From the NCBI GenBank assembly GCA_963695555.1, contig CAVOGR010000001.1, forward strand, positions 1-64,000: a stretch of 64,000 nucleotides of DNA, written 5' to 3'. Positions within the stretch are counted from its first letter, which is position 1; each line of letters opens with the position of its first letter. The notes beneath the pieces are model-generated. The model saw nothing but the letters and a program-made list of their open reading frames with translations. It did no database searches and was not told the origin of the DNA. Source of the stretch: an uncultured Gemmatimonadales bacterium (GTDB taxonomy: Bacteria; Gemmatimonadota; Gemmatimonadetes; Gemmatimonadales; GWC2-71-9). A program made the translations under genes and the position numbers. Shown in pieces: positions 7,181 through 39,639 of the stretch.

Positions 7181-7300
7181 TGTCATCCCGAGGGTGCGAA
7201 GCGCCCGAGGGATCTCAGTAACGCATGCCCGGGGCGTTACGTGGGCGAGGCTGAGGTCGGGGAAGAGTTGAGGAGATCCCTCGCTTCGCTCGGGATGACA
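7181..7300 (+). repeat. Palindromic-ended element copy 1 (36 bp long arm, 56 bp spacer, 28 bp short arm)
   Basis: TGTCATCCCGAGGGTGCGAAGCGCCCGAGGGATCTC ... GAGATCCCTCGCTTCGCTCGGGATGACA. Confidence 0.95.
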
Positions 7301-7320
7301 GATTCGCCCAGGGTTGAGGG

Positions 7321-7439
7321 GATGTGATCGGGGCCCCCGTCGCTTTAGTGACAGATTGCCGAGTCGCGGCTTTAGCCGCGGACTGCGGGCGGAGGTCGAG
7401 GAACAGTCGAGAAGATCCCTCGCTCCGCTCGGGATGACA
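7321..7439 (+). repeat. Second repeat family (CGCGGCTTTAGCCGCG hairpin) fused to a solo short arm
   Basis: Closely similar to 18174-18287; related sequence at about 5700-5760 and, inverted, at about 21520-21560. Confidence 0.8.
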
Positions 7440-7667: not shown

Positions 7668-8012
7668 GTGATCCAATTCATTGAAACGACTGGATTTACC
7701 GACCGTATCCGCAAGCTGGGATTGGAGCCGGACCTTGAGGCCCTGCAGCAGGAGCTGCTGGCGAACCCCACGAGAGGCAAGCGGGACCCTGGCACCGGAG
7801 GTCTCCGCAAGGTGCGCATGCCGGACAGTGGCCGCGGCAAGGGAAAGAGTGGTGGTGCGCGGGTGCACTACTTGTACCTCCCGAAGCCGGCGGTCATCTA
7901 CCTGGTCTTCGTGTTCACCAAGGACGAACTCGACACCTTGTCGCCGGTGCAGAAAAAGCAGGTGCGCAGGCTCACGCAGGCGATCAAGCAGGAATGGCGC
8001 TCCCGTTCCTGA
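7668..8012 (+). CDS. RelE/HigB-like toxin
   Basis: GTGGLRKVR...GKGKSGGARVHY...IYLVFVFTKDE. Confidence 0.85.
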   Translation: MIQFIETTGFTDRIRKLGLEPDLEALQQELLANPTRGKRDPGTGGLRKVRMPDSGRGKGKSGGARVHYLYLPKPAVIYLVFVFTKDELDTLSPVQKKQVRRLTQAIKQEWRSRS

Positions 8013-8032
8013 CGGGACGAGAGGACGAGGTT

Positions 8033-8359
8033 ATGGAAGACAAGCTCTACAAGGAATTCATGGTGTCGCTGGGCGAGGCGCTCGACCATGCCAAGGGCAA
8101 GCTCGAGCTCCGCACAACGACCCTGCCAGCCCCGCCGCATCCCATGAGTGCGGACGAGATCAGGTCACTCCGAGAGGACATTCATGCCTCGCAGGCGGTC
8201 TTCGCCCATTGCCTGAACGTCAGCACCAAGCTGGTCCAAGCCTGGGAAGCAAACCGGCGTCAGCCGCAGGGAGCCGCTCTACGACTATTGGACCTCGCGC
8301 GCCGAGAGCCGCAGGTGGTGTTTGGTGAGTTGATCGAGGGAGTAGGGAGTAGGGAGTAG
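8033..8359 (+). CDS. HigA-like XRE HTH antitoxin
   Basis: EIRSLREDIHASQAVFAHCLNVSTKLVQAWEANRRQPQG; follows the toxin; C-terminus GVGSRE comes from the repeat tract. Confidence 0.85.
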   Translation: MEDKLYKEFMVSLGEALDHAKGKLELRTTTLPAPPHPMSADEIRSLREDIHASQAVFAHCLNVSTKLVQAWEANRRQPQGAALRLLDLARREPQVVFGELIEGVGSRE

Positions 8360-8387
8360 GGAGTGGGAAGGCGGGTAACCTCTGAAC

Positions 8388-8505
8388 TGTCATCCCGAGG
8401 GTGCGAAGCGCCCGAGGGATCTCACTACCGCATGCCCGGGGAGTCGTGGACCAAGGCCGCGTTCGGGTAGCAGTCGAGGAGATCCCTCGCTGCGCTCGGG
8501 ATGAC
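8388..8505 (+). repeat. Palindromic-ended element copy 2
   Basis: Same arms; spacer identical to copy 3. Confidence 0.95.
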
Positions 8506-8622
8506 GGAAGGCGGAAAGTCGGCCAGTGTGAAAGACGGAAAGGGCGAAGAGGAATCAGAAGTAGAATCCTTGACCGATTACTTCCCGTCTTCCCGCCTTT
8601 CCGTCTTAACGGTCGTCTGCCA

Positions 8623-8650
8623 TTGACATACAATCGTATGCTTCTAGCAT
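8623..8650 (+). promoter_or_regulatory. Sigma70-like promoter, probably leaderless, with overlapping CATAC/GTATG inverted repeats
   Basis: TTGACA-16 bp-TAGCAT, 6 bp before ATG 8657. Confidence 0.55.
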
Positions 8651-8656
8651 ACATAC

Positions 8657-9205
8657 ATGCTCGCCGCACTCCTGGGCTCCCGCGCCCGCGCCGCCATCCT
8701 GGCCCGTCTCCTCCTCGCCCCCGACCGGGAGGAGCATCTGCGCGAGCTGGCCCGCGCCACCGGCTTCGCGCCCCGCACCGTGCAGGTCGAGGTCGATCGG
8801 CTAGTCGCAGCCGGCATCGTGCACGAGCGGCGTTCCGGCAACCGTCGGTACCTCTCGGCGGAAAAAGGCCACCCACTCTACAGCGGACTGTGCCAACTTC
8901 TCCAGGAGAGTTACGGCCTCGAGGCCGCTCTCAAGGAAGCTGTCAGAGACGTGCCCGCTATCGAGGAGGCGTTCATGTTCGGCTCGGCCGGCCGCGGCGA
9001 GCGGCGCGCAGGGAGTGATGTGGACGTCCTACTGGTCGGGTCCATCGGAACCCGCCAGAGCCTGACGCTGCTCCGGCCGCTGGCAACCCGGTTCGGCGTC
9101 GAGATCTCTCCGGTCGTGTACTCCCCGAAGGAATTCCGGAAGCGCGCCCGCGTCCGAGGCTTCGTCGCCTCGGTGCTCGAGTCGAATCCTACGCGCTTGA
9201 AGTAG
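8657..9205 (+). CDS. wHTH plus minimal nucleotidyltransferase (MNT) antitoxin
   Basis: HLRELARATG HTH; FGSAGRGERRAGSDVDVL (GS...DxD). Confidence 0.8.
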   Translation: MLAALLGSRARAAILARLLLAPDREEHLRELARATGFAPRTVQVEVDRLVAAGIVHERRSGNRRYLSAEKGHPLYSGLCQLLQESYGLEAALKEAVRDVPAIEEAFMFGSAGRGERRAGSDVDVLLVGSIGTRQSLTLLRPLATRFGVEISPVVYSPKEFRKRARVRGFVASVLESNPTRLK

Positions 9206-9213
9206 TACCCCGT

Positions 9214-9663
9214 GTGACCACGCTCGACGACTGGCTGCGAAGCCGCTGGCTCACCGCCCACGTCCCCTCACCGAGCGAACTCGAGAATCTCCTGGCTATC
9301 GCAGAGCGTGACCTGGCGGATTCATCGGTGGCAGGTGTCTCGCTGGATGCCCAGTTGGGGCTCCTCTACAACGCCGCACTCAAGCTCGCCGACATCGCGC
9401 TCCGCCTGAGGGGCTTCCGCGCTGCGCGTGAGAACGCCCATTACCGCATCATCAACTCGCTGCCCCACACGTTGGGCGAACGGTGGGCCGAATCAGCCGA
9501 GTTCCTGGACCTGGTCCGAACACTACGCCACCGCGGTGACTATGAAGCCGTCGGCGTCGCGACCGAAGAGGTCGTCGCGGAGCTGCGGACGGAATTAGGT
9601 CGGCTGGGGCCTGCCGTGCGATCCGAGATCAAGACGAAGAGTGAGGAATGGAGTAAGGAGTGA
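9214..9663 (+). CDS. HEPN-domain protein (MNT partner)
   Basis: AERDLADS...LLYNAAL...RTLRHRGDY; directly downstream of the MNT gene. Confidence 0.7.
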   Translation: MTTLDDWLRSRWLTAHVPSPSELENLLAIAERDLADSSVAGVSLDAQLGLLYNAALKLADIALRLRGFRAARENAHYRIINSLPHTLGERWAESAEFLDLVRTLRHRGDYEAVGVATEEVVAELRTELGRLGPAVRSEIKTKSEEWSKE

Positions 9664-9746
9664 GCAGTAAGGAGTAAGGAGTGAGGAGGGAGGAGTGAGG
9701 AGTGAGGAGTGAAGAGTAAGGAGTAAGGAGTAAGGAGTAAGGAGTG
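9639..9746 (+). repeat. Long heptamer tract (GGAGTAA/GGAGTGA)n overlapping the HEPN stop codon
   Basis: About 15 degenerate units read directly. Confidence 0.95.
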
Positions 9747-9804
9747 TGCGACAGGGAGTGGGGAGTAGCCTGTAGGGAGTAGGAGGGCAGGGGAGGCTCT
9801 GGAT

Positions 9805-9923
9805 TGTCATCCCGAAGGTGCAGAGCGCCCGAGGGATCTCACTACCGCATGCCCGGGGAGTCGTGGACCAAGGCCGCGTTCGGGTAGCAGTCGAGGAGAT
9901 CCCTCGCTGCGCTCGGGATGACA
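9805..9923 (+). repeat. Palindromic-ended element copy 3
   Basis: Arms as in copy 1. Confidence 0.95.
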
Positions 9924-10000
9924 GAACATGGCGAATAACACTGCAACACGCGACCTTGCCGATCCGCCGATCCGCCGATCCGCCGATCCGCCGAGTCTGC

Positions 10001-10387
10001 TTACCGCCTCGCCCGCTCTCGAATCCATTGCGCCAGGTCGGCTTCCGACATGGTGCCGGAGGCCGTCCTGAGCATCACTGCCACGACGTCACGCTCGTCG
10101 GCGACGAGATCCAGGCCGTTCAGGCCGAGGAATACGACCATGGTGACGAAGGCGGTGCGTTTGTTGCCGTCCCGGTAGCAGTTGCTGCGCGCGATGCCGT
10201 AGCAGTAGGCGGCGGCGAGTGCTGCGAGGTCGGTTGCGTTGTCGTAGTGATACTTATGCTGAGGGCGTGAGAGAGCCGACTCCAATGCGTTCTCGTCGCC
10301 GATGCCTTGGAGTCCACCGTGTTCGCGAAGCTGTTCGAAGTGGATGATGTCAACCACCAGCCGACTGACCCAGCGCGGTTCCTTCAC
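10001..10387 (-). CDS. Doc (death-on-curing) Fic-family toxin with variant motif
   Basis: HGGLQGI...LESALSRP...YGIARSNCYRDGNKRTAF. Confidence 0.85.
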   Translation of the reverse strand: MKEPRWVSRLVVDIIHFEQLREHGGLQGIGDENALESALSRPQHKYHYDNATDLAALAAAYCYGIARSNCYRDGNKRTAFVTMVVFLGLNGLDLVADERDVVAVMLRTASGTMSEADLAQWIRERARR

Positions 10388-10399
10388 CGGCCCGCGCTC

Positions 10400-10627
10400 T
10401 TACTGGCCCAGCTCGCGCAGCGCATTGCGGTATCGCTTGGCGGCACTGCGCATGAAGTCCAGGGCCGCGATGGTGGTGGGGTCGTACGGGGTGAGCAGGA
10501 TGCCGTGCTCGGTCTCCACCGCCAGGACGGTGTCTCCCGCCTCGACCTTGAGCCGATCGACCATGTCCTTGGGCAACGTGGTGCCCACCGAGCCACCCAC
10601 CTGCCGCAAGGTAATTTCTTTGAACAT
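10400..10627 (-). CDS. AbrB/MazE-type antitoxin
   Basis: LRQVGGSVGTTLPKDMVDRLKVEAGD...RYRNALRELG; upstream of doc. Confidence 0.85.
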   Translation of the reverse strand: MFKEITLRQVGGSVGTTLPKDMVDRLKVEAGDTVLAVETEHGILLTPYDPTTIAALDFMRSAAKRYRNALRELGQ

Positions 10628-10794
10628 AAAGAGTTAGCCCGTGTCTCTGGTGATGTTATACTCCCATGCTACAATATATAACTTTTGTGTGACGGGGCAA
10701 GGAAGGGGAGGAGTAAAGGAGTGAGGAGTGAGGAGTGTGGATAGGGAGTGGGGAGTAGCATGTAGGGAGTAGGAGGGCAGGGTAGGCTCTGGAT

Positions 10795-10913
10795 TGTCAT
10801 CCCGAGGGTGCGAAGCGCCCGAGGGATCTCGTTAACGCATGCCCGGAGAGTTATCTGAGCGAGGCGGAGCTCGAGCCTCGTTAAGGAGATCCCTCGCTTC
10901 GCTCGGGATGACA
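10795..10913 (+). repeat. Palindromic-ended element copy 4
   Basis: Arms as in copy 1; extended flanks shared with copy 3. Confidence 0.95.
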
Positions 10914-11064
10914 GAGCATGGCGGATGTACACTGCAACACGCGACCGCCGAACCGCCGATCCGCCGATTCGCCGATTCGCCGATCCGCCCAACCGCCGAC
11001 CCGCCGACCCGCCCTCCTTACACCAGCTTGCGACGAGTACTACTAAGTATTACTTTCTCATACC

Positions 11065-11493
11065 ATGCCGTTGACCCGCATTTCGATCACCATTCCCGAG
11101 GACGTGGTCGAGGCCGCCGACCGGGCCGCCCGGGAACTGGATCGCTCCCGGAGCTGGCTCGTGGTCGAGGCCCTGAGGCGCTACCTCGCCGACCGGGCCA
11201 GGCCAGCCAGCCGCGTGGCCGAGCCGGTGGCGCCGTATCGGGTGCCGCCGGTGGCGGCCCCGGTGAGGGTGGTGGATGCGGCAGCCGAGGTGGCGGAGGC
11301 ACGGAGGCTCCGTCTCGCGAGCGAACTCCGCTTGTCACCGCTCGAGCGACTCGAGCGGGCGGAGGCGTTGGGACGCCTCGGGCGCGAGGTGCAACGGCGG
11401 GAGCAGGGAGGAGCAGTACGGGCGCAGATCATAGGATTCGATTCTTACGACGACTACTACCGGTGGAAGCGGACGAAACTGATCGGGGCGTAA
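11065..11493 (+). CDS. Ribbon-helix-helix (CopG-like) protein with C-terminal extension
   Basis: RISITIPEDVVEAADRAARELDRSRSWLVVEALRRYL. Confidence 0.75.
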   Translation: MPLTRISITIPEDVVEAADRAARELDRSRSWLVVEALRRYLADRARPASRVAEPVAPYRVPPVAAPVRVVDAAAEVAEARRLRLASELRLSPLERLERAEALGRLGREVQRREQGGAVRAQIIGFDSYDDYYRWKRTKLIGA

Positions 11494-12035: not shown

Positions 12036-12155
12036 TGTCATCCCGAGGGTGCAGAGCGCCCGAGGGATCTCGTTAACGCATTTCTGGGGCGTTACGTGGG
12101 AGAGGCGGGGGTTGGGGAAAAATAAAGGAGATCCCTCGCTTCGCTCGGGATGACA
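12036..12155 (+). repeat. Palindromic-ended element copy 5
   Basis: Arms as in copy 1. Confidence 0.95.
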
Positions 12156-17836: not shown

Positions 17837-18173
17837 GAGCTCCTCCTTGGTGAATGAGCCGCCGCTACAGTGCGGTTGGGCGGTCTCGGAGTCGGAGGGG
17901 CGTCGAACGAACGGCGTCGAACCAGCGGCGGGATCGCCCAGGCCAGCGGCGATTGAGGTGTCGCGATTGTCCCCAAGTACTACTATGGGACACAAATGAT
18001 CGTGAGATTTGTGAGAAAAAAATTCACGAAAACGAGCGCTAGGGTTTTCCCTAAAACCCGAAGCGATGGGTCGTGAAAGAGGGAGGAGTGAGGAGTGAGG
18101 AGTGAGGAGTGAGACAGATAGCGGATGGGCGGCTCCGATGCACGCGATCCGCCGATCCGTCACGGGCTGCGTG

Positions 18174-18287
18174 GATGTGATCGGGGCCCTCGTCGCTTTA
18201 GCGACAGCAGCCGAGTCGCGGCTTTAGCCGCGGACTCGGGCGGAGGTCGAGCAACGGTTGAGGAGATCCCTCGCGCTCTGGATGACA
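18174..18287 (+). repeat. Second-family hairpin repeat plus degenerate solo short arm
   Basis: CCGAGTCGCGGCTTTAGCCGCGGACTCGG...GAGATCCCTCGCGCTCTGGATGACA. Confidence 0.8.
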
Positions 18288-21340: not shown

Positions 21341-21461
21341 TGTCATCCCGAGGGTGCGGAGCACCCGAGGGATCTCGTTAACGCATGTCCGGGGAGTTTC
21401 CGAAGGCCCGGCGGAGGTCGGGGAACAGTTGAGTAGATCCCTCGCTTCGCTCGGGATGACA
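21341..21461 (+). repeat. Palindromic-ended element copy 6
   Basis: Arms as in copy 1. Confidence 0.95.
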
Positions 21462-21650
21462 CTCCCTGCACCCGACCGATAGCCGATAGCTGTTGGCCCT
21501 TTCGAGATCTCTCTATTCTCACGCGGCTAAAGCCGCTGCTCGGCACGGCGTGGCTGTCGCCACGCGCTGCGGGGGCAGAGATTCTTCCCGCGGCCACCTC
21601 CTCACTCCTTACTCCTTACTCCTCACTCTTAGACCAATAGCCAATAGCCC

Positions 21651-22425: not shown

Positions 22426-22543
22426 TGTCATCCCGAGCGAAGCGAGGGATCTCCTCGAAGCGTCCCGGACTCCGCATCGCATACGGAAGCTCCAAGCATG
22501 CTTTAACGAGATCCCTCGGGCGCTTCGCACCCTCGGGATGACA
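22426..22543 (-). repeat. Palindromic-ended element copy 7 (inverted)
   Basis: Short arm first, long arm last. Confidence 0.95.
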
Positions 22544-24346: not shown

Positions 24347-24467
24347 TGTCATCCCGAGGGTGCAAAGCGCCCGAGGGATCTCATCAACGCATGCCTGGGG
24401 ACTTTGCTTCGGCGAGGCGGAGGTCGAGGACCGGTTGAGGAGATCCCTCGCTGCGCTCGGGATGACA
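24347..24467 (+). repeat. Palindromic-ended element copy 8
   Basis: Arms as in copy 1. Confidence 0.95.
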
Positions 24468-26896: not shown

Positions 26897-27016
26897 TGTC
26901 ATCCCGAGCGGAGCGAGGGATCTCCTCAACTTCTTCCCGACCTCCGCCTCTCCCACGCAACGCGCTAGAAATGCGTTAACGAGATCCCTCGGGCGCTCTG
27001 CACCCTCGGGATGACA
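26897..27016 (-). repeat. Palindromic-ended element copy 9 (inverted)
   Basis: Short arm first; spacer related to copies 1 and 5. Confidence 0.95.
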
Positions 27017-28496: not shown

Positions 28497-28914
28497 ATGC
28501 GCCCACTCCTCGTCGTTCTGGCCGCCGCGGCGGTGGTCGGTTGCAGCGGGCCCACCGAGGTCAACATCGATCAGGACTTCACCCTCGCCTTTGGCGAGTC
28601 GGTGACCATCGAGAAGCACCGGGATCACGATCACCTTCGAGGACGTACTGGAAGACAGCCGATGCCCGATCAATGCGGTCTGCGTGTGGGCGGGGAACGC
28701 CCGGATCCAGCTCGCGGTCAACACTCCTGCTCGGCATGTCGTGCTCCAGACCCGCTCCGACTCGAACTACGCCGTCGTGTACCAGGAAGGCATCCGGCAG
28801 CTGGTGGTCCAGCTCGGGAACCTGCTCCCCGAGCCCGTGGCTGGGGAAACGACCGACAAGCAGGACTACAAGTCGACTATGAAGGCGATGTGGTGGGAGA
28901 GGCTCGAGCAGTGA
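28497..28914 (+). CDS. Tandem paralogue of the preceding lipoprotein, frameshift near 28620
   Basis: VVGCSGPTEV...EDSRCPINAVCVWAGNARIQL. Confidence 0.7.
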
Positions 28915-29006
28915 GGAGTCAGGAGTAGTAGAGGAGTCAGGAGTAAGGAGTAAGGAGTGAGGAGTGAGGAGTAAGGAGTGAGGAGTGAGGAGTAAGGAGT
29001 GAGGAG
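28910..29006 (+). repeat. G-rich heptamer tract (GGAGTRA)n
   Basis: About 13 units; paired with the C-rich tract 29156-29220 across element copy 10. Confidence 0.95.
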
Positions 29007-29023: not shown

Positions 29024-29142
29024 TGTCATCCCGAGGGTGCGAAGCGCCCGAGGGATCTCATCAACGCATGCCCGGGGAGTCGCGGACCAAGGCCGCGTTC
29101 GAGTAGCAGTCGAGGAGATCCCTCGCTGCGCTCGGGATGACA
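29024..29142 (+). repeat. Palindromic-ended element copy 10
   Basis: Spacer nearly identical to copies 2 and 3. Confidence 0.95.
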
Positions 29143-30648: not shown

Positions 30649-30706
30649 TGATGGAGTAGGGAGTAGGGAGTAGGGAGTAGGGAGTCCGAGAGATGAAAAG
30701 GTATTC

Positions 30707-31213
30707 TGTCATCCCGAGGGTGCGCAGCGCCCGAGGGATCTCGTCAGTCCTGGCTCGTGAGGCGCAGTGACATCAACGGCGACAATTTGGTGCAGATGTT
30801 AGCAGACCGGGCAGCTATTCTGAGGCGTCTCAGTCAGGCAGGTCCAGCATAGCAACCAAGATCATGCAGGTCTACATCTTAGCCAGTCGCTCGCGGAAAT
30901 TGTACGTTGGCGTCACGGCGGACTTGCCGCGTAGAATCTACCAGCATCGCACTGGTCAGGCACTGAGTTTCACTTCACGATACGGCATCACATGGCTCGT
31001 GTACTATGAATGCGCTTCTAGCCCACGGGCGGCGATCGAACGGGAAAAGAGACTGAAGAAGTGGTCTCGTTCCAAGAAGATCGCCCTGGTCGAATCCTCG
31101 AACCCTGACTGGAGAGACCTGGCGGCCAATTGGTTTCCCCGACCCCATGTATCTTATTGGGAATCGGGCTACGGGACAGGGTGAGGAGACCCCTCGCTCT
31201 GCTCGGGATGACA
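30707..31213 (+). mobile_element. Candidate autonomous element: long arm - GIY-YIG gene - short arm (507 bp)
   Basis: Long arm 30707-30742 and short arm 31186-31213, same sequence family and orientation as the 11 short copies; mobility is inferred. Confidence 0.7.
30864..31184 (+). CDS. Stand-alone GIY-YIG nuclease
   Basis: VYILAS...LYVGVT...RRIYQHR...FTSRY...LVYYE...AIEREKRLKKWSRSKK...NPDWRDL. Confidence 0.9.
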   Translation: MQVYILASRSRKLYVGVTADLPRRIYQHRTGQALSFTSRYGITWLVYYECASSPRAAIEREKRLKKWSRSKKIALVESSNPDWRDLAANWFPRPHVSYWESGYGTG

Positions 31214-31312
31214 CAGGAGGGTCGAACTGTTCACGACTGACTATGGGCATCGTTCCAATTCCCAGCCTCCCCACTCATTAGACTGTTCCCTACTCCCTAC
31301 TCCCTAAAGAGC

Positions 31313-32788
31313 ATGCCCACCCCCACCCCCACCCTCCGCCTCCGCCAGCTCAACCCAAGGCCCGTCAATCCCGATGGAGACTATGTCCTCTACTGGATGG
31401 CGGCGTTCCGGCGCACCCGGTACAACTTCGCGTTCGAGCGCGCGGTGGAGTGGGCGCGTGAGCTCGCGAAGCCGCTGGTGATCTTGGAGGCACTCCGGTC
31501 TGATTATCGCTGGGCCAGCGACCGGCTCCACTACTTCGTGATCCAGGGCATGGCCGACAACCACCGCCGCCTCGCCGGGAAACCGGTGACCTACTACCCC
31601 TATCTCGAGCCCAAGCACGGAGCGGGGAAGGGCCTGCTCCCCGCGCTGGCCGAGCGGGCCGCGGTGGTGGTAGGCGACGACTTCCCGTCGTTTTTCCTGC
31701 CTCGGATGGTCCAGGCCGCCGCCAAACAGATTCCGGTTTCGTTCGAGGTGGTGGACTCGAACGGCATCCTGCCGCTCCGCGCAGCGGACAAAATCTTTGC
31801 CCGGGCGCACGACTTCCGCCGCTTTCTCCAGAAGAACCTGGCGCCGCACCTGGACGAGTTTCCCACGGCCGACCCGCTGGCGCGGCTCGAGCTCCCAGCG
31901 CTCGAGCGGCTGCCGTCCGCCATCACCAAGCGCTGGCCAGCGGCCGACGTCAGGGCGCTGGCGGACGACGCGAGCCTCTTGCGCCGGTTTCCCATCGACC
32001 ATGATGTCGGCATTACCGAGACGAAGGGTGGGGAGCGGGCTGCCACGCGCACCCTCCGCCGGTTTCTCGAGCTCAGGCTGTCGCGCTACGCCGAGGAGCG
32101 GAATCAGCCCGAGGTTGACGCCACCAGCGGCTTATCGCCCTATCTCCACTTCGGCCACATCTCGCCGCATCAGGTGTTCCGGGAGCTCATGGACTGGGAC
32201 GGCTGGACCCCCGACAAGCTCGCGGCCAAGGCCACCGGCAGCCGGAGCGGCTGGTGGGGCGCAAGCGAAGCGACCGAGGCCTTTCTCGACGAGTTCATCA
32301 CCTGGCGCGAAGTGGGCTACAACATGTCGTGGCAGCGTGACGACAACGAGCGCTACGAATCGCTGCCCGACTGGGCCAGGATCACACTGGGGGAGCACGA
32401 CCAGGACCGCCGTGAGCATGTCTATTCATTAGAGCAGTTCGCGGCGGCGGAGACCCACGACGACCTCTGGAACGCGGCCCAGCGAGAGCTCACCCGGGAG
32501 GGCCGGATCCACAACTACCTGCGCATGCTCTGGGGCAAGAAGATTCTCGAGTGGACCCGGAGCCCGCGCGCGGCGCTCGACATCATGATCGAACTCAACA
32601 ACCGCTATGCGCTGGATGGGAGGAACCCCAACAGCACGAGCGGCATCTGCTGGGTGCTGGGCCGCTACGACCGGGCCTGGGGCCCCGAGCGCCCGATCTT
32701 CGGCAAGATCCGATACATGTCGAGCGCCAACACCGCGCGGAAGGTGAGGGTGGGGGGATACATTGAAAAGTATGGAGCTGTGGACTGA
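31313..32788 (+). CDS. phr: Deoxyribodipyrimidine photolyase (class II-like)
   Basis: VLYWM, SGLSPYLHFGHIS, THDDLWNAAQ, HNYLRMLWGKKILEW, LDGRNPN, ERPIFGKIRYM. Confidence 0.9.
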   Translation: MPTPTPTLRLRQLNPRPVNPDGDYVLYWMAAFRRTRYNFAFERAVEWARELAKPLVILEALRSDYRWASDRLHYFVIQGMADNHRRLAGKPVTYYPYLEPKHGAGKGLLPALAERAAVVVGDDFPSFFLPRMVQAAAKQIPVSFEVVDSNGILPLRAADKIFARAHDFRRFLQKNLAPHLDEFPTADPLARLELPALERLPSAITKRWPAADVRALADDASLLRRFPIDHDVGITETKGGERAATRTLRRFLELRLSRYAEERNQPEVDATSGLSPYLHFGHISPHQVFRELMDWDGWTPDKLAAKATGSRSGWWGASEATEAFLDEFITWREVGYNMSWQRDDNERYESLPDWARITLGEHDQDRREHVYSLEQFAAAETHDDLWNAAQRELTREGRIHNYLRMLWGKKILEWTRSPRAALDIMIELNNRYALDGRNPNSTSGICWVLGRYDRAWGPERPIFGKIRYMSSANTARKVRVGGYIEKYGAVD

Positions 32789-32928
32789 GAGCTATTAGCT
32801 ATTAGCTATTAGCTATTGGTCAAAGCATTGCCTTCTCGGCGAGCCAATAGCCAATAGCCAATAGCCCTCCGCCTACCCCCGCTCTTTCTCCCTGCTACCT
32901 TTCTCCAACTGTCACTCCGGAGCCCCCT

Positions 32929-34934: not shown

Positions 34935-35053
34935 TGTCATCCCGAGGGAGCGGAGCGCCCGAGGGATCTCATGAACGCGTGCCCCGAGCCTTGTGTGAGT
35001 GAACGAAATTCGGGAAAGCGTTGAGGAGATCCCTCGCTGCGCTCGGGATGACA
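34935..35053 (+). repeat. Palindromic-ended element copy 11
   Basis: Arms as in copy 1; between convergent genes that both end in GSRE. Confidence 0.95.
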
Positions 35054-37869: not shown

Positions 37870-38022
37870 CCAGAAGAGGGAGTAGGGAGTAGGGAGTGGG
37901 GACTGGGTCTTGCTCGAACTCCACCGATGAAATCGCATGCGCCCGCGCCTCTCTTTGGTGACCCCTGCGCACCTCACTTCTTATTCCTTACGCTCTTGTT
38001 CTCACTCCCTACTCCCTACTCC

Positions 38023-39639
38023 CTACTCCCTACTCCCTACTCCCTGTAGCACCCTTCCGTCGATCGCTCCGGCCGGCCGCACGCCCAGCAGCGCTGCGAG
38101 AGTCGGTGCGATGTCCACGGTTCGCACCCGCTGCGCGTGCCGGCCCGGCGCGATGCCGGGGCCGGCGAAGAGGAGCGGCACGTGGGTGTCGTGCGGGTGC
38201 GGGCTGCCGTGCGAGGTCCCGTTGGGACTATTGGTAATCAGGATGTCCTCCCGGGGCACGATCATCACGTCTGCGGAGCGGCCGAGGTAGTAGCTACGGC
38301 GATAGGCATCGAAGTACGGGCGGGTGCTATCGGGTCCCGCGACGAGTTCGTCCGACGTGTAGGCCTCGAGCACCGCGGGCGACTGTCGGAGTGCCATGGC
38401 CATCATGCGCCGCGCGTCAACCTGGTTCTGCTCTCCGGTACCGGGTGGAAATTCCATCACCACTCCGCCGGACATGGTGATCGCGGGAGCGGTGGTGTCG
38501 GCCGCGAGGGCCTGCATCACGAGGGTGTCCAGCGCGCGCCGCGAGGCCCGTGCCGCGCGGAAGCCGCGGCGGGCCGATTCTTCCGGCATCGTCATTACCC
38601 CGTGGTCGGCCGTGAGGGTCACGGCGTAGTTGGCCCGGCCGACCGTCTGATCCAGGAAGACGAACAGCGAGTCGAGCTGGAGGTCGAGCCGGAGATAGAA
38701 GTCTTCCACTTCCTGACTGTACGGACCGTAGGCATGGCCGACGTAGTCGGCGGCGGACAGCCCGATGAACAGGATATCGGGCCGCTCGTCGGCCCCCAGT
38801 CGCTCGTTCGTCACGAGCTCCCGCGCGAAGGCCAGGGTGACTTCATCGGCGAAGGGTGAGCGCAAGAAGATCCGGTCGTAGAACCGCTGCCAGCCGCCGT
38901 CTTCTTCGCGGGCTTCGATCAGGTGTGGGAAGGTGGAACTCCCGCTATCGTACTCCGGGGCGAAATCATCCTCCCGTGAGGCGACGTAGGTCGACTCGGC
39001 ATAGAGCCGCTCCCAGTGCCGGCCGTTGTAGGCCGCGGCGGGCTCGGCCGCGTTGAACTGGCTCACCCACTCCGGGTAGTCGGATCGGTAATAGACCGAA
39101 GTGACGAAGTGGCCGGTGGCGGCGTAGTACCAATAGACGCCGTCCGGCCGTTTCCCACCCATCGCGATCGCGGCTCGGTCTTTGATGGCGACGGAAAAGA
39201 CCCGGCTCCGCGGCGAGCGCCGCTTGAGCCAGTCACCCAAGGCGGTGGTCTTCATGTTGGCCGGTGAGCGGCCCGGTGCGTCGGGTATGCCCACGATCGG
39301 CGCCGCAGGATCATCGAACGAGTAGACTGTCCGGTGCGTCGAGCGATCGTACCAGTTGTTCTGCATGATTCCGTTGCGGGAGGGAAAGGCGCCCGTCGAG
39401 ATCGCCGCATGTCCCGGTGCGGTTTCCGTCAACGCGTGGTCCTGGTAGGCGTCGGTGAATACCGCTCCGTCACGAAGGAGCCGTGCCAGTCCGCCAGTGA
39501 AGCGGTCGTCGAAGCGGTCCAGGTAGTCCGGCCGCATCTGGTCGACGGCGATGACCACCACGAGCCGCGGCCCCTCGAGCGGCGGCCGGCAGGCGAGGAA
39601 GGAGACCAGCAGAACGGAGAGACAGCGTGCACGAATCAT
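38023..39639 (-). CDS. Alkaline phosphatase superfamily protein (PafA-like)
   Basis: VDQMR, TETAPGHA, KDRAAI, DYVGHAYGP, TADHG, HGSP. Confidence 0.9.
   Translation of the reverse strand: MIRARCLSVLLVSFLACRPPLEGPRLVVVIAVDQMRPDYLDRFDDRFTGGLARLLRDGAVFTDAYQDHALTETAPGHAAISTGAFPSRNGIMQNNWYDRSTHRTVYSFDDPAAPIVGIPDAPGRSPANMKTTALGDWLKRRSPRSRVFSVAIKDRAAIAMGGKRPDGVYWYYAATGHFVTSVYYRSDYPEWVSQFNAAEPAAAYNGRHWERLYAESTYVASREDDFAPEYDSGSSTFPHLIEAREEDGGWQRFYDRIFLRSPFADEVTLAFARELVTNERLGADERPDILFIGLSAADYVGHAYGPYSQEVEDFYLRLDLQLDSLFVFLDQTVGRANYAVTLTADHGVMTMPEESARRGFRAARASRRALDTLVMQALAADTTAPAITMSGGVVMEFPPGTGEQNQVDARRMMAMALRQSPAVLEAYTSDELVAGPDSTRPYFDAYRRSYYLGRSADVMIVPREDILITNSPNGTSHGSPHPHDTHVPLLFAGPGIAPGRHAQRVRTVDIAPTLAALLGVRPAGAIDGRVLQGVGSRE

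Follow-up and report, generated by a model that had tools for sequence, protein, structure and literature searches.

Ssn proteins are single-domain GIY-YIG proteins (CDD cd10448) whose genes are flanked by hairpin repeats, NTS (CGTCATTCCCGCGMAVGCGGGAATCYRG) or SRM, and a 2025 paper presented them as the first nucleases to act site-specifically on single-stranded DNA (ssDNA) (Chenal et al. 2025, Nat Commun 16:2388, PMC11893778). The four members that were purified cleave ssDNA alone, at the 5' side of the motif, and leave the reverse strand uncut; characterised members bind the folded single-stranded repeat (PMC11893778). The same paper compares the NTS-ssnA-NTS layout to an insertion sequence (IS), and the repeats to repetitive extragenic palindromes (REP) and their REP-associated tyrosine transposases (RAYT). 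In N. meningitidis, the NTS/SsnA pair modulates transformation and NTS copies cluster around particular genes (PMC11893778). Two Gemmatimonas genomes, which make up two of the three occurrences of "gemmatimon" in the supplementary files covered, are given there without an ssnA homologue (PMC11893778). The subject here is a related locus in the window, by which we mean the whole 64,000-nucleotide stretch analysed, the start of contig C1 in a genome assembly (G000; 3.57 Mb, 14 contigs) from an uncultured Gemmatimonadales bacterium (GCA_963695555.1, contig CAVOGR010000001.1). At 30707-31213 the window holds a 507-bp unit in which a small GIY-YIG gene lies between inverted hairpin arms, and it also holds eleven gene-less pairs of the same arms, here called doublets.

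The reading we prefer, at a probability of roughly 70%, is that the 507-bp unit is an ssn cassette, i.e., an Ssn-family GIY-YIG nuclease between its inverted cognate hairpins, which would be a late rider on a resident repeat family and not the parent of the eleven doublets. The window repeat would itself belong to an Ssn-related arm type, the "GA class", with a leading 5'-GTCAT, a 5-bp stem, tandem G.A mismatches and mostly a GCGNAGC tip. The pairing of enzyme and hairpin is already published (PMC11893778), and no other report of it was found in literature on GIY-YIG together with REP, REP doublets forming hairpins (REPIN), RAYT, miniature inverted-repeat transposable elements (MITE), terminal inverted repeats or transposase, or in work on SsnA/Ssn from 2024-25 onwards. 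What the window adds is an arm class, the doublet form, and comparative evidence for gain of a cassette among persisting repeats.

The locus resembles the Ssn/SRM system in its single-domain GIY-YIG protein of about 100 amino acids (aa), in the bracketing of the gene by inverted 5'-GTCAT hairpins, in the additional, mostly intergenic and clustered repeat copies, and in an arm type that varies by protein lineage (PMC11893778). It differs in the hairpin itself, since the window arms carry tandem G.A mismatches and a GCGNAGC tip whereas the described Ssn repeats have a perfect TTCCCGCG/CGCGGGAA stem, and in the asymmetric long/short doublets of about 120 bp. A term search of PMC11893778 covered the main text and 12 of the 14 supplementary files: the words REPIN, MITE and Correia are absent from the main text, and those files contain none of the four GTCATYCYGAG strings. 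The source genome has 17-18 units, as opposed to the hundreds of repeats in Neisseria.

The probable ssn cassette

The cassette comprises a long and a short arm around an intact open reading frame (ORF), with a heptamer array on either side.

30653..30685, + strand: heptamer array (GGAGTAG) x4.7 on the long-arm side (Tandem Repeats Finder; the array-plus-linker layout is common to 15 aligned doublets)
30707..30742, + strand: long arm, a 5'-GTCAT-led hairpin (1 mismatch to consensus)
30743..30863, + strand: leader of 121 nt, from the long arm to the ATG (sequence)
30864..31184, + strand: ssn gene, intact, for a 106-aa single-domain GIY-YIG nuclease (Pfam PF01541)
31186..31213, - strand: short arm, a GTCAT-led motif without the upper-stem extension (3 mismatches to consensus)
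31287..31306, + strand: inverse heptamer array (TCCCTAC) x2.9 on the far side (Tandem Repeats Finder)

A sequence-only reading of the window had singled out this unit as a twelfth copy of the paired arms, enclosing an intact 106-aa GIY-YIG gene, and the assignment holds: the ORF matches Pfam GIY-YIG (PF01541) over residues 2-72 with an E value of 1.8e-13 and 51 bits (cut-off 22.6). The TGA stop codon ends at 31184 and the short arm begins at 31186, leaving the single base that had been noted between them; several of the doublet spacers likewise terminate in ...TTGAG, in agreement with the TGAG endings pointed out in that reading. Neither the Pfam scan nor a structural model revealed a second domain in the 106-aa protein, the last ~20 residues of which are modelled with low confidence. 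The AlphaFold2 model (mean predicted local distance difference test score, pLDDT, 85.8) has the GIY-YIG fold, and an alignment of the window protein with 16 homologues shows Y4, Y14, G16, R24, H28, E61 and N80 to be invariant. In SsnA, mutation of the conserved GIY/YIG tyrosines and of the metal-binding acidic residue abolishes cleavage (PMC11893778).

The closest fold matches to the model are UPF0213 protein BH0048 (1zg2), Slx1 (6seh), the UvrC N-domain and I-TevI, and 1zg2 is also the top match by sequence in the PDB (E 1.5e-5). Minimal GIY-YIG proteins of the UPF0213/Slx1 type (1zg2, 1ywl, 6seh) are thus the closest structures, 1zg2 by sequence as well as by fold; they are structural-genomics proteins or a subunit of a eukaryotic structure-specific nuclease. 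The homing endonuclease I-TevI and the Seg proteins share with the window protein the GIY-YIG catalytic domain and a selfish-gene lifestyle, but the 106 aa leave no separate DNA-binding domain, and the window gene lies outside any intron or phage and is flanked by its own recognition hairpins. Scans against NCBIfam, and of the whole window against Rfam at gathering thresholds, gave zero matches.

The source genome holds a single gene of the ssn type, and its remaining three Pfam GIY-YIG matches sit in open frames of at least 248 aa. The ORF has a G+C content of 55.5% and a third-codon-position G+C (GC3) of 64%, as compared to a GC3 of 72-89% in neighbour genes; for the whole insert G+C is 55.8%, versus 63.9% for the window. 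A simple scan found neither a sigma-70-like promoter nor a T-run terminator at the cassette. The cassette's own short arm is degraded, with GGGAT changed to GGGGT among its 3 mismatches to the consensus.

Public sequencing contigs that cover the gene at this locus come from 3 runs in 3 studies. One 421-nt contig from a public metatranscriptome library covers 30757-31177 (leader and gene) with 5 differences and at a depth like that of the flanking genes; it is no proof of transcription, because the library may contain carried-over DNA. Apparent "joints" in public contigs that skip 437-440 bases were considered as excision products and rejected, as they derive from paralogous doublets; one of them bears a 4-letter spacer that is found at C2:28120-28193. 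Next to the cassette lies a 491-aa ORF (31313-32788; GC3 0.87) with no Pfam family at E <= 0.001, conserved in the related genomes G002, G003 and G004.

Arms and gene-less doublets

Arms were sought in the window with up to 3 mismatches per arm, and 100 dinucleotide-preserving shuffles served as the control. The long arm has 12 matches (10 on the + strand, 2 on the - strand) and the short arm 13, with 0 of either in the 100 shuffles. Apart from the cassette they form eleven doublets of 118-121 bp. Their starts, their 36-bp and inverted 28-bp arms and their spacers (estimated in the sequence-only reading at ~55 bp and here 54-57 bp) are as that reading had them. Every copy in the window is intergenic, and all arrangements of neighbour genes are represented, including convergent genes and divergent starts. 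The doublets and two related chimeric units are listed below; G002 and G004 are related genomes considered further on.

7181..7300, + strand: gene-less doublet with a 56-bp spacer (arm matches; ssDNA fold -36.3 kcal/mol, z = -6.0)
7301..7439, + strand: chimeric unit in which a short arm (7412-7439) is fused to a REP-like module of the type flanking the genome's Y1 transposase (arm match, repeat comparison)
8388..8506, + strand: gene-less doublet (arm matches)
9805..9923, + strand: gene-less doublet at the left edge of a Fic/Doc-MazE cassette (arm matches)
10795..10913, + strand: gene-less doublet (arm matches)
12036..12155, + strand: gene-less doublet (arm matches)
18150..18287, + strand: degenerate chimeric unit, a REP-type module with a decayed short arm (repeat comparison)
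21341..21461, + strand: gene-less doublet; ortholog at G002:C8:10286-10406 with the same rare loop variant (arm matches, synteny)
22426..22543, - strand: gene-less doublet; an arm at the orthologous G002 site (arm matches, synteny)
24347..24467, + strand: gene-less doublet; ortholog at G002:C8:13444-13563 (arm matches, synteny)
26897..27016, - strand: gene-less doublet; in G002 a REP-type module stands after the short arm in place of the long arm (arm matches, synteny)
29024..29142, + strand: gene-less doublet; neither arm nor doublet at the corresponding site of G002 (by inspection), a positional counterpart in G004 (arm matches, synteny)
34935..35053, + strand: gene-less doublet; a copy of the same subfamily one gene further left in G002 (arm matches, synteny)

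Three features had escaped the sequence-only reading: the thirteenth short arm (7412-7439), a conserved stretch of ~22 nt plus a heptamer array upstream of every long arm, and the clustering of the family. When 15 doublets are aligned with their flanks, conservation on the right ends sharply after ...ATGACA, and on the left it extends through the ~22-nt linker and the heptamer array (NNGGAGT)n. Near-identical spacers occur at four loci (8388, 9805, 29024 and C2:39518). Genome-wide there are 17 long and 20 short arms, clustered and not dispersed over the 3.57-Mb assembly: 12 units lie in the window at 7-35 kb, 4 on contig C2 at 28-48 kb and 1 on contig C7. Solo short arms are present at C1:710.6 kb and C5:185.6 kb; by exact-pattern search the C1 place also has a more diverged long arm. 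The long arm comes first on the G-rich strand in 15 of 17 units, weak evidence of an orientation bias because clustered copies are not independent.

Read on the strand that starts with 5'-GTCAT, each arm forms an ATCCC/GGGAT stem, an internal loop of tandem G.A/A.G mismatches and an upper stem capped by a loop of 3 nt. The long arm, with its 5-bp stem and 6-bp upper stem, folds as DNA at -8.2 kcal/mol; the short arm, with a 2-bp upper stem, at -3.5 kcal/mol; and the degraded short arm of the cassette forms a weak fold of -1.9 kcal/mol. At C7:127399 and in its G002 counterpart the upper stem is a compensated variant, GGGCAC...GTGCCC as against GGGTGC...GCGCCC. The tip GCGNAGC, present in 29 of the 37 arms of the genome, is the "mini-hairpin DNA" motif (PMC13037366), and it points to structure mattering at the DNA level. 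As ssDNA a whole doublet forms one long hairpin with two 4-nt bulges (-36.3, -32.2 and -35.6 kcal/mol; z -5.2 to -6.0), a folding that is REPIN-like in form only.

Comparison with REP/REPIN-RAYT systems nonetheless brings out shared features, as in both cases a single-copy nuclease gene lies between hairpin repeats, inverted doublets without a gene fold as a single long hairpin, and the repeats take part in intergenic mosaics. The enzymes differ, the window protein being of the GIY-YIG and not the HUH type, and the genome's own Y1 transposase has different repeats. Its gene, the only Y1_Tnp match in the genome (IS200/RAYT-type), lies at C3:49194-49541 between its own, different REP-like hairpins, and contig C3 carries none of the arms described here.

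Arms and ssn homologues across phyla

A wide scan for homologues, with a 6-sequence alignment as query and one genome per species, gave 592 confirmed matches, of which the best 80 (about 46-61% identity) were kept. By record title the hosts belong to Acidobacteriota, Chloroflexota, Gemmatimonadota, Pseudomonadota, Bacillota, candidate phyla and others. A strict arm detector, which calls GTCAT followed by a perfect 5-bp closing stem, was applied to 99 homologue loci with 50 shuffles of their flanks as the control. Inward-facing GTCAT hairpin arms lie on both sides of the gene at 49 of the 99 loci (0 in shuffles) and on at least one side at 76 (shuffle mean 2.1); 19 loci have no arm in either orientation by this detector, although some of these have diverged arms by eye. 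The sequence-only reading had asked whether the nuclease clade is enriched for flanking arms, and this enrichment is borne out. Ahead of one homologue, from Gallionella (L109; 54% identical), the sequence agrees exactly with the NTS consensus, an indirect link to the Ssn family.

Arm type also follows the protein. On a protein tree of the homologues, a quick build from about 90 columns in which host kinship can add to the signal, GA versus non-GA arm class requires 6 changes, compared to a mean of 13.8 and a minimum of 10 when labels are shuffled, so that the co-variation of arm and nuclease, put forward earlier as a test, is seen for the GA class. The 3-nt stem label requires 39, with shuffled labels averaging 48.8 and never going below 42. 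Among the loci with a scored arm, 61 of 76 belong to the GA class, more than to any other. The asymmetric long/short pairing recurs as well, the two arms differing in length by at least 5 nt in 23 of the 49 loci flanked on both sides, with the longer arm upstream in 9.

Gene and arms tend to occur together among relatives as well, a further point that the sequence-only reading had put forward as a test. The relatives comprised 60 related genomes and the window's own, and a close homologue was taken as one with a best E value of 1.3e-19 or below (41-59% identity outside the source genome); the tallies count G018, unpublished, as a negative row. Of the 15 genomes in which a close homologue was found, 10 carry GA-class arms, as do 4 of the 46 others, and the gene is present in 7 of the 9 genomes having at least 5 arms. 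Long-plus-short doublets with other stems were seen in G019 and G021. In G021 there is, in addition, a direct tandem array of four same-orientation arms with a 37-nt period (C74:2669-2804) that is not an inverted doublet. A generic GTCAT-hairpin detector run over the whole source genome is noisy (351 matches versus 112 in one shuffle) and indicates a real family only for the CCC class.

These associations bear on the simplest account of the doublets, that they belong to the host as common structural repeats of its intergenic regions, acting for instance as terminators, as mRNA stabilisers or as sites for protein binding, with no functional tie to the nuclease, whose gene happened to land in one of them. 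That all copies are intergenic, several of them between convergent genes, fits such an account, as do their persistence where no close ssn homologue was found and their mosaics with heptamer arrays and RAYT-type REPs, which recall bacterial interspersed mosaic elements (BIME). On the other hand, GTCAT hairpins are arranged in the same way around ssn homologues of many phyla, much more often than chance would give, and the arm class tracks the protein tree; some copies stand between divergent gene starts, and neither a T-run terminator pattern at the cassette nor an Rfam match was found. We therefore consider this account improbable.

History of the locus in related genomes

The window is syntenic with contig C8 of G002 at 90-94% identity. 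The doublets at 21341 and 24347 lie inside syntenic blocks of 90-91% identity and share rare loop variants with their G002 counterparts. At the cassette the picture is different: the intergenic site measures 597 bp here versus 105 bp in G002 and 129 bp in G004, and it is 244 bp long in G003, a more distant relative. Neither gene nor arms are present at this site in any of these three congeners (3 of 3 with the site assembled). Empty and filled orthologous sites, the comparison that the sequence-only reading had called for, are thus available for the cassette. In G001 an ssn gene of 55-56% identity with near-identical arms sits at another locus, corresponding to C2:71.7-71.9 kb here, which is empty in the source genome. 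In G002 (98% complete, 10 contigs) the arms gave 30 matches, and the 61-genome homologue search found no close ssn homologue there.

As judged from these comparisons, the cassette is a recent gain at an intergenic site in the source lineage, and the doublets are probably older than the ssn copy, because orthologous doublets and arms persist in G002 without a close homologue and the cassette site is empty in the congeners. The number of doublets appears to be independent of gene presence. This also sets the system apart from RAYT: the window ssn gene is single-copy but is not vertically inherited with the repeats, its site being empty in 3 of 3 congeners and the G001 gene lying elsewhere. The proposal in the sequence-only reading had two parts, and they fared differently. 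A REPIN-like system of GIY-YIG enzyme and hairpins finds its match in the published Ssn/SRM pairing, but the idea that the gene spread the eleven empty copies is left without support by the arms of G002, which lacks a close homologue in our search, the orthologous doublets and the empty cassette site.

A different way to understand the persistence of arms in G002 is a domesticated, host-serving system as proposed for Neisseria, in which Ssn would cut arm-marked ssDNA during transformation, replication or recombination and so control the exchange of bracketed genes, with the doublets kept by selection and the cassette exchangeable. The transformation phenotype of NTS/SsnA in N. meningitidis and the clustering of NTS around genes (PMC11893778) lend it some weight. 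So do the clustering of the window arms, which bracket variable cassettes at 7-12 kb, the different placement in G002 of one bracketed cassette (Fic/Doc), and the intactness of the arms in G002, where no close ssn homologue was found. That same result cuts the other way, since one would expect a function of use to the host to have been kept; moreover the cassette is compositionally foreign in look, and ssn homologues within the genus are merely 55-56% identical. We regard this possibility as rather unlikely.

Predicted cleavage and the question of mobility

If the window protein acts as its published relatives do, it would bind an arm only when the 5'-GTCAT strand is single-stranded and folded, and the nick would fall a few nucleotides 5' of the GTCAT motif. 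Because the arms are inverted, the two predicted nicks would lie just outside the unit on opposite strands, one per strand. Under the reading we prefer, the cassette would have been gained at its intergenic site in the source lineage, while the doublets would be older residents maintained mostly by vertical inheritance, though now and then one would have been lost, changed its place or recombined with repeat modules of other kinds; recombination through the heptamer arrays would be one possible route of spread.

The competing view with the most direct bearing on mobility is that the ssn unit is an autonomous, transposon-like member that moves or copies arm-bounded units by way of ssDNA hairpins, with the doublets as its non-autonomous, REPIN-like derivatives. 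The IS-like layout and predicted nicks that bracket the unit would suit it, as would the folding of a doublet into one long hairpin (z about -6, REPIN-like), the gain of the cassette at a new site and the near-identical spacers at 8388, 9805, 29024 and C2:39518. The doublet at 34935 is also suggestive: here it follows an IndA-like gene and in G002 it precedes one, so that a copy of one subfamily stands one gene apart in two species, with spacer and flanks 89.8% identical over 205 bp. The 15/17 orientation bias recalls IS200/IS605 elements, a weak likeness given that the copies are clustered.

Several observations do not fit transposition. Arms are about equally numerous in G002, where a close ssn homologue was not found, so that the number of copies is not tied to the gene; several doublets have kept their place at orthologous sites; and the copies are clustered in two regions. 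Global alignment of filled versus empty sites defined neither a target-site duplication nor a clean junction, since the loops between heptamer arrays are unalignable across species, and the repeated unit extends past the arms on the left. A true excision joint was absent among the public contigs examined. To our knowledge no joining (strand-transfer) activity has been reported for Ssn, and the literature searched contained no demonstration of mobility of arm-bounded ssn units. Transposition in this form strikes us as doubtful. In its boldest version, arm-bounded ssn cassettes of ~0.5 kb would be autonomous mobile elements among the smallest in bacteria, driven by an ssDNA-specific GIY-YIG nuclease and not by any known transposase chemistry, with long and short arms marking the ends and doublets as non-autonomous passengers that can outlive the gene, capture modules and reshuffle cassettes; this too we think rather unlikely.

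The late-rider reading of the cassette has difficulties of its own. Not one of four arm variants fits the published degenerate SRM sequence (PMC11893778), and that motif has 42 matches in the genome, none within an element. With its degraded, poorly folding short arm, the cassette may have lost part of its function as a unit. The conserved linker and heptamer array beyond the predicted left nick are unexplained by a unit defined by two nicks. Finally, the choice of one gain over three independent losses rests on parsimony and base composition.

Neighbouring modules and repeats

At 7-12 kb of the window, doublets of the same orientation, spaced 1.0-1.4 kb apart, separate small modules: a nucleotidyltransferase, a Fic/Doc gene with a MazE-type antitoxin, and a ribbon-helix-helix (RHH) protein gene. 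These toxin-antitoxin (TA)-like modules (7668-11493) sit between successive doublets. In G002 the Fic/Doc module (G002:C8:7413-8329) is found on the other side of a Fur-peroxidase block, with 82.6% identity as compared to 91-94% for neighbour genes.

This arrangement raises the idea that the doublets are attC sites of an integrase-less integron array, with the TA modules as its gene cassettes. Same-orientation repeats around TA modules at such spacing, the two 4-nt bulges of the folded doublet, and the occurrence in the genome of an integron-integrase-like gene are what could be said for it. The boxes of integron attC sites are RYYYAAC/GTTRRRY, whereas the unit here ends in TGTCAT/ATGACA; the integrase-like gene, read in three frames, is on another contig (C7), and the GTTAGAC-type sites downstream of it do not resemble the arms; the doublets occur in both orientations, and among conserved housekeeping-type genes; and the arm type is tied to ssn across phyla. 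We consider an attC origin very improbable. The integrase-like gene (C7:852589-853532, L006) scores 218.5, 128.3 and 66.5 bits in its three frames, each below the 265-bit cut-off, and the GTTAGAC-type sites with small ORFs continue downstream of it as far as the end of the contig; either a frameshifted integron or an error of assembly could account for this.

Tandem arrays of 7-8 nt pack the intergenic regions between 6885 and 53201 (e.g., 9638-9759, 28906-29006, 38004-38045 and 32790-32866), often as inverted pairs of the form (AGGGAGT)n...(ACTCCCT)n or (AGCTATT)n...(AATAGCC)n. Exact arrays of at least 3 units are concentrated in the doublet regions, 30 of the 47 on C1 lying within the first 50 kb and 18 of the 23 on C2 within the first 100 kb. 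Short-period arrays near ssn in other genomes were seen at 11 of 98 loci, too few for a general feature.

Copies or relatives of the Y1-type REP are fused to Ssn-type short arms at 7301-7439 and 18150-18287, and they are present also at 21522-21551; at C2:34383-34585 a REP of the Y1 type lies inside a doublet spacer. To judge by these fusions, the two hairpin-repeat systems form chimeric mosaics in the source genome.

Significance of the locus

Ssn enzymes are of interest as tools, and the mobility of the unit made up of gene plus repeats has so far merely been suggested. The present locus is a natural test case for that suggestion, with a cassette in one species, an empty site in three congeners, and a sister genome (G002) that retains the repeats and in which no close homologue of the gene was found. 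The GA arm class is common among the sampled homologues, which come from many phyla, but is missed by the published motif, so motif-based surveys may undercount the system, and each pair of arm and enzyme is a candidate for a new cleavage specificity.

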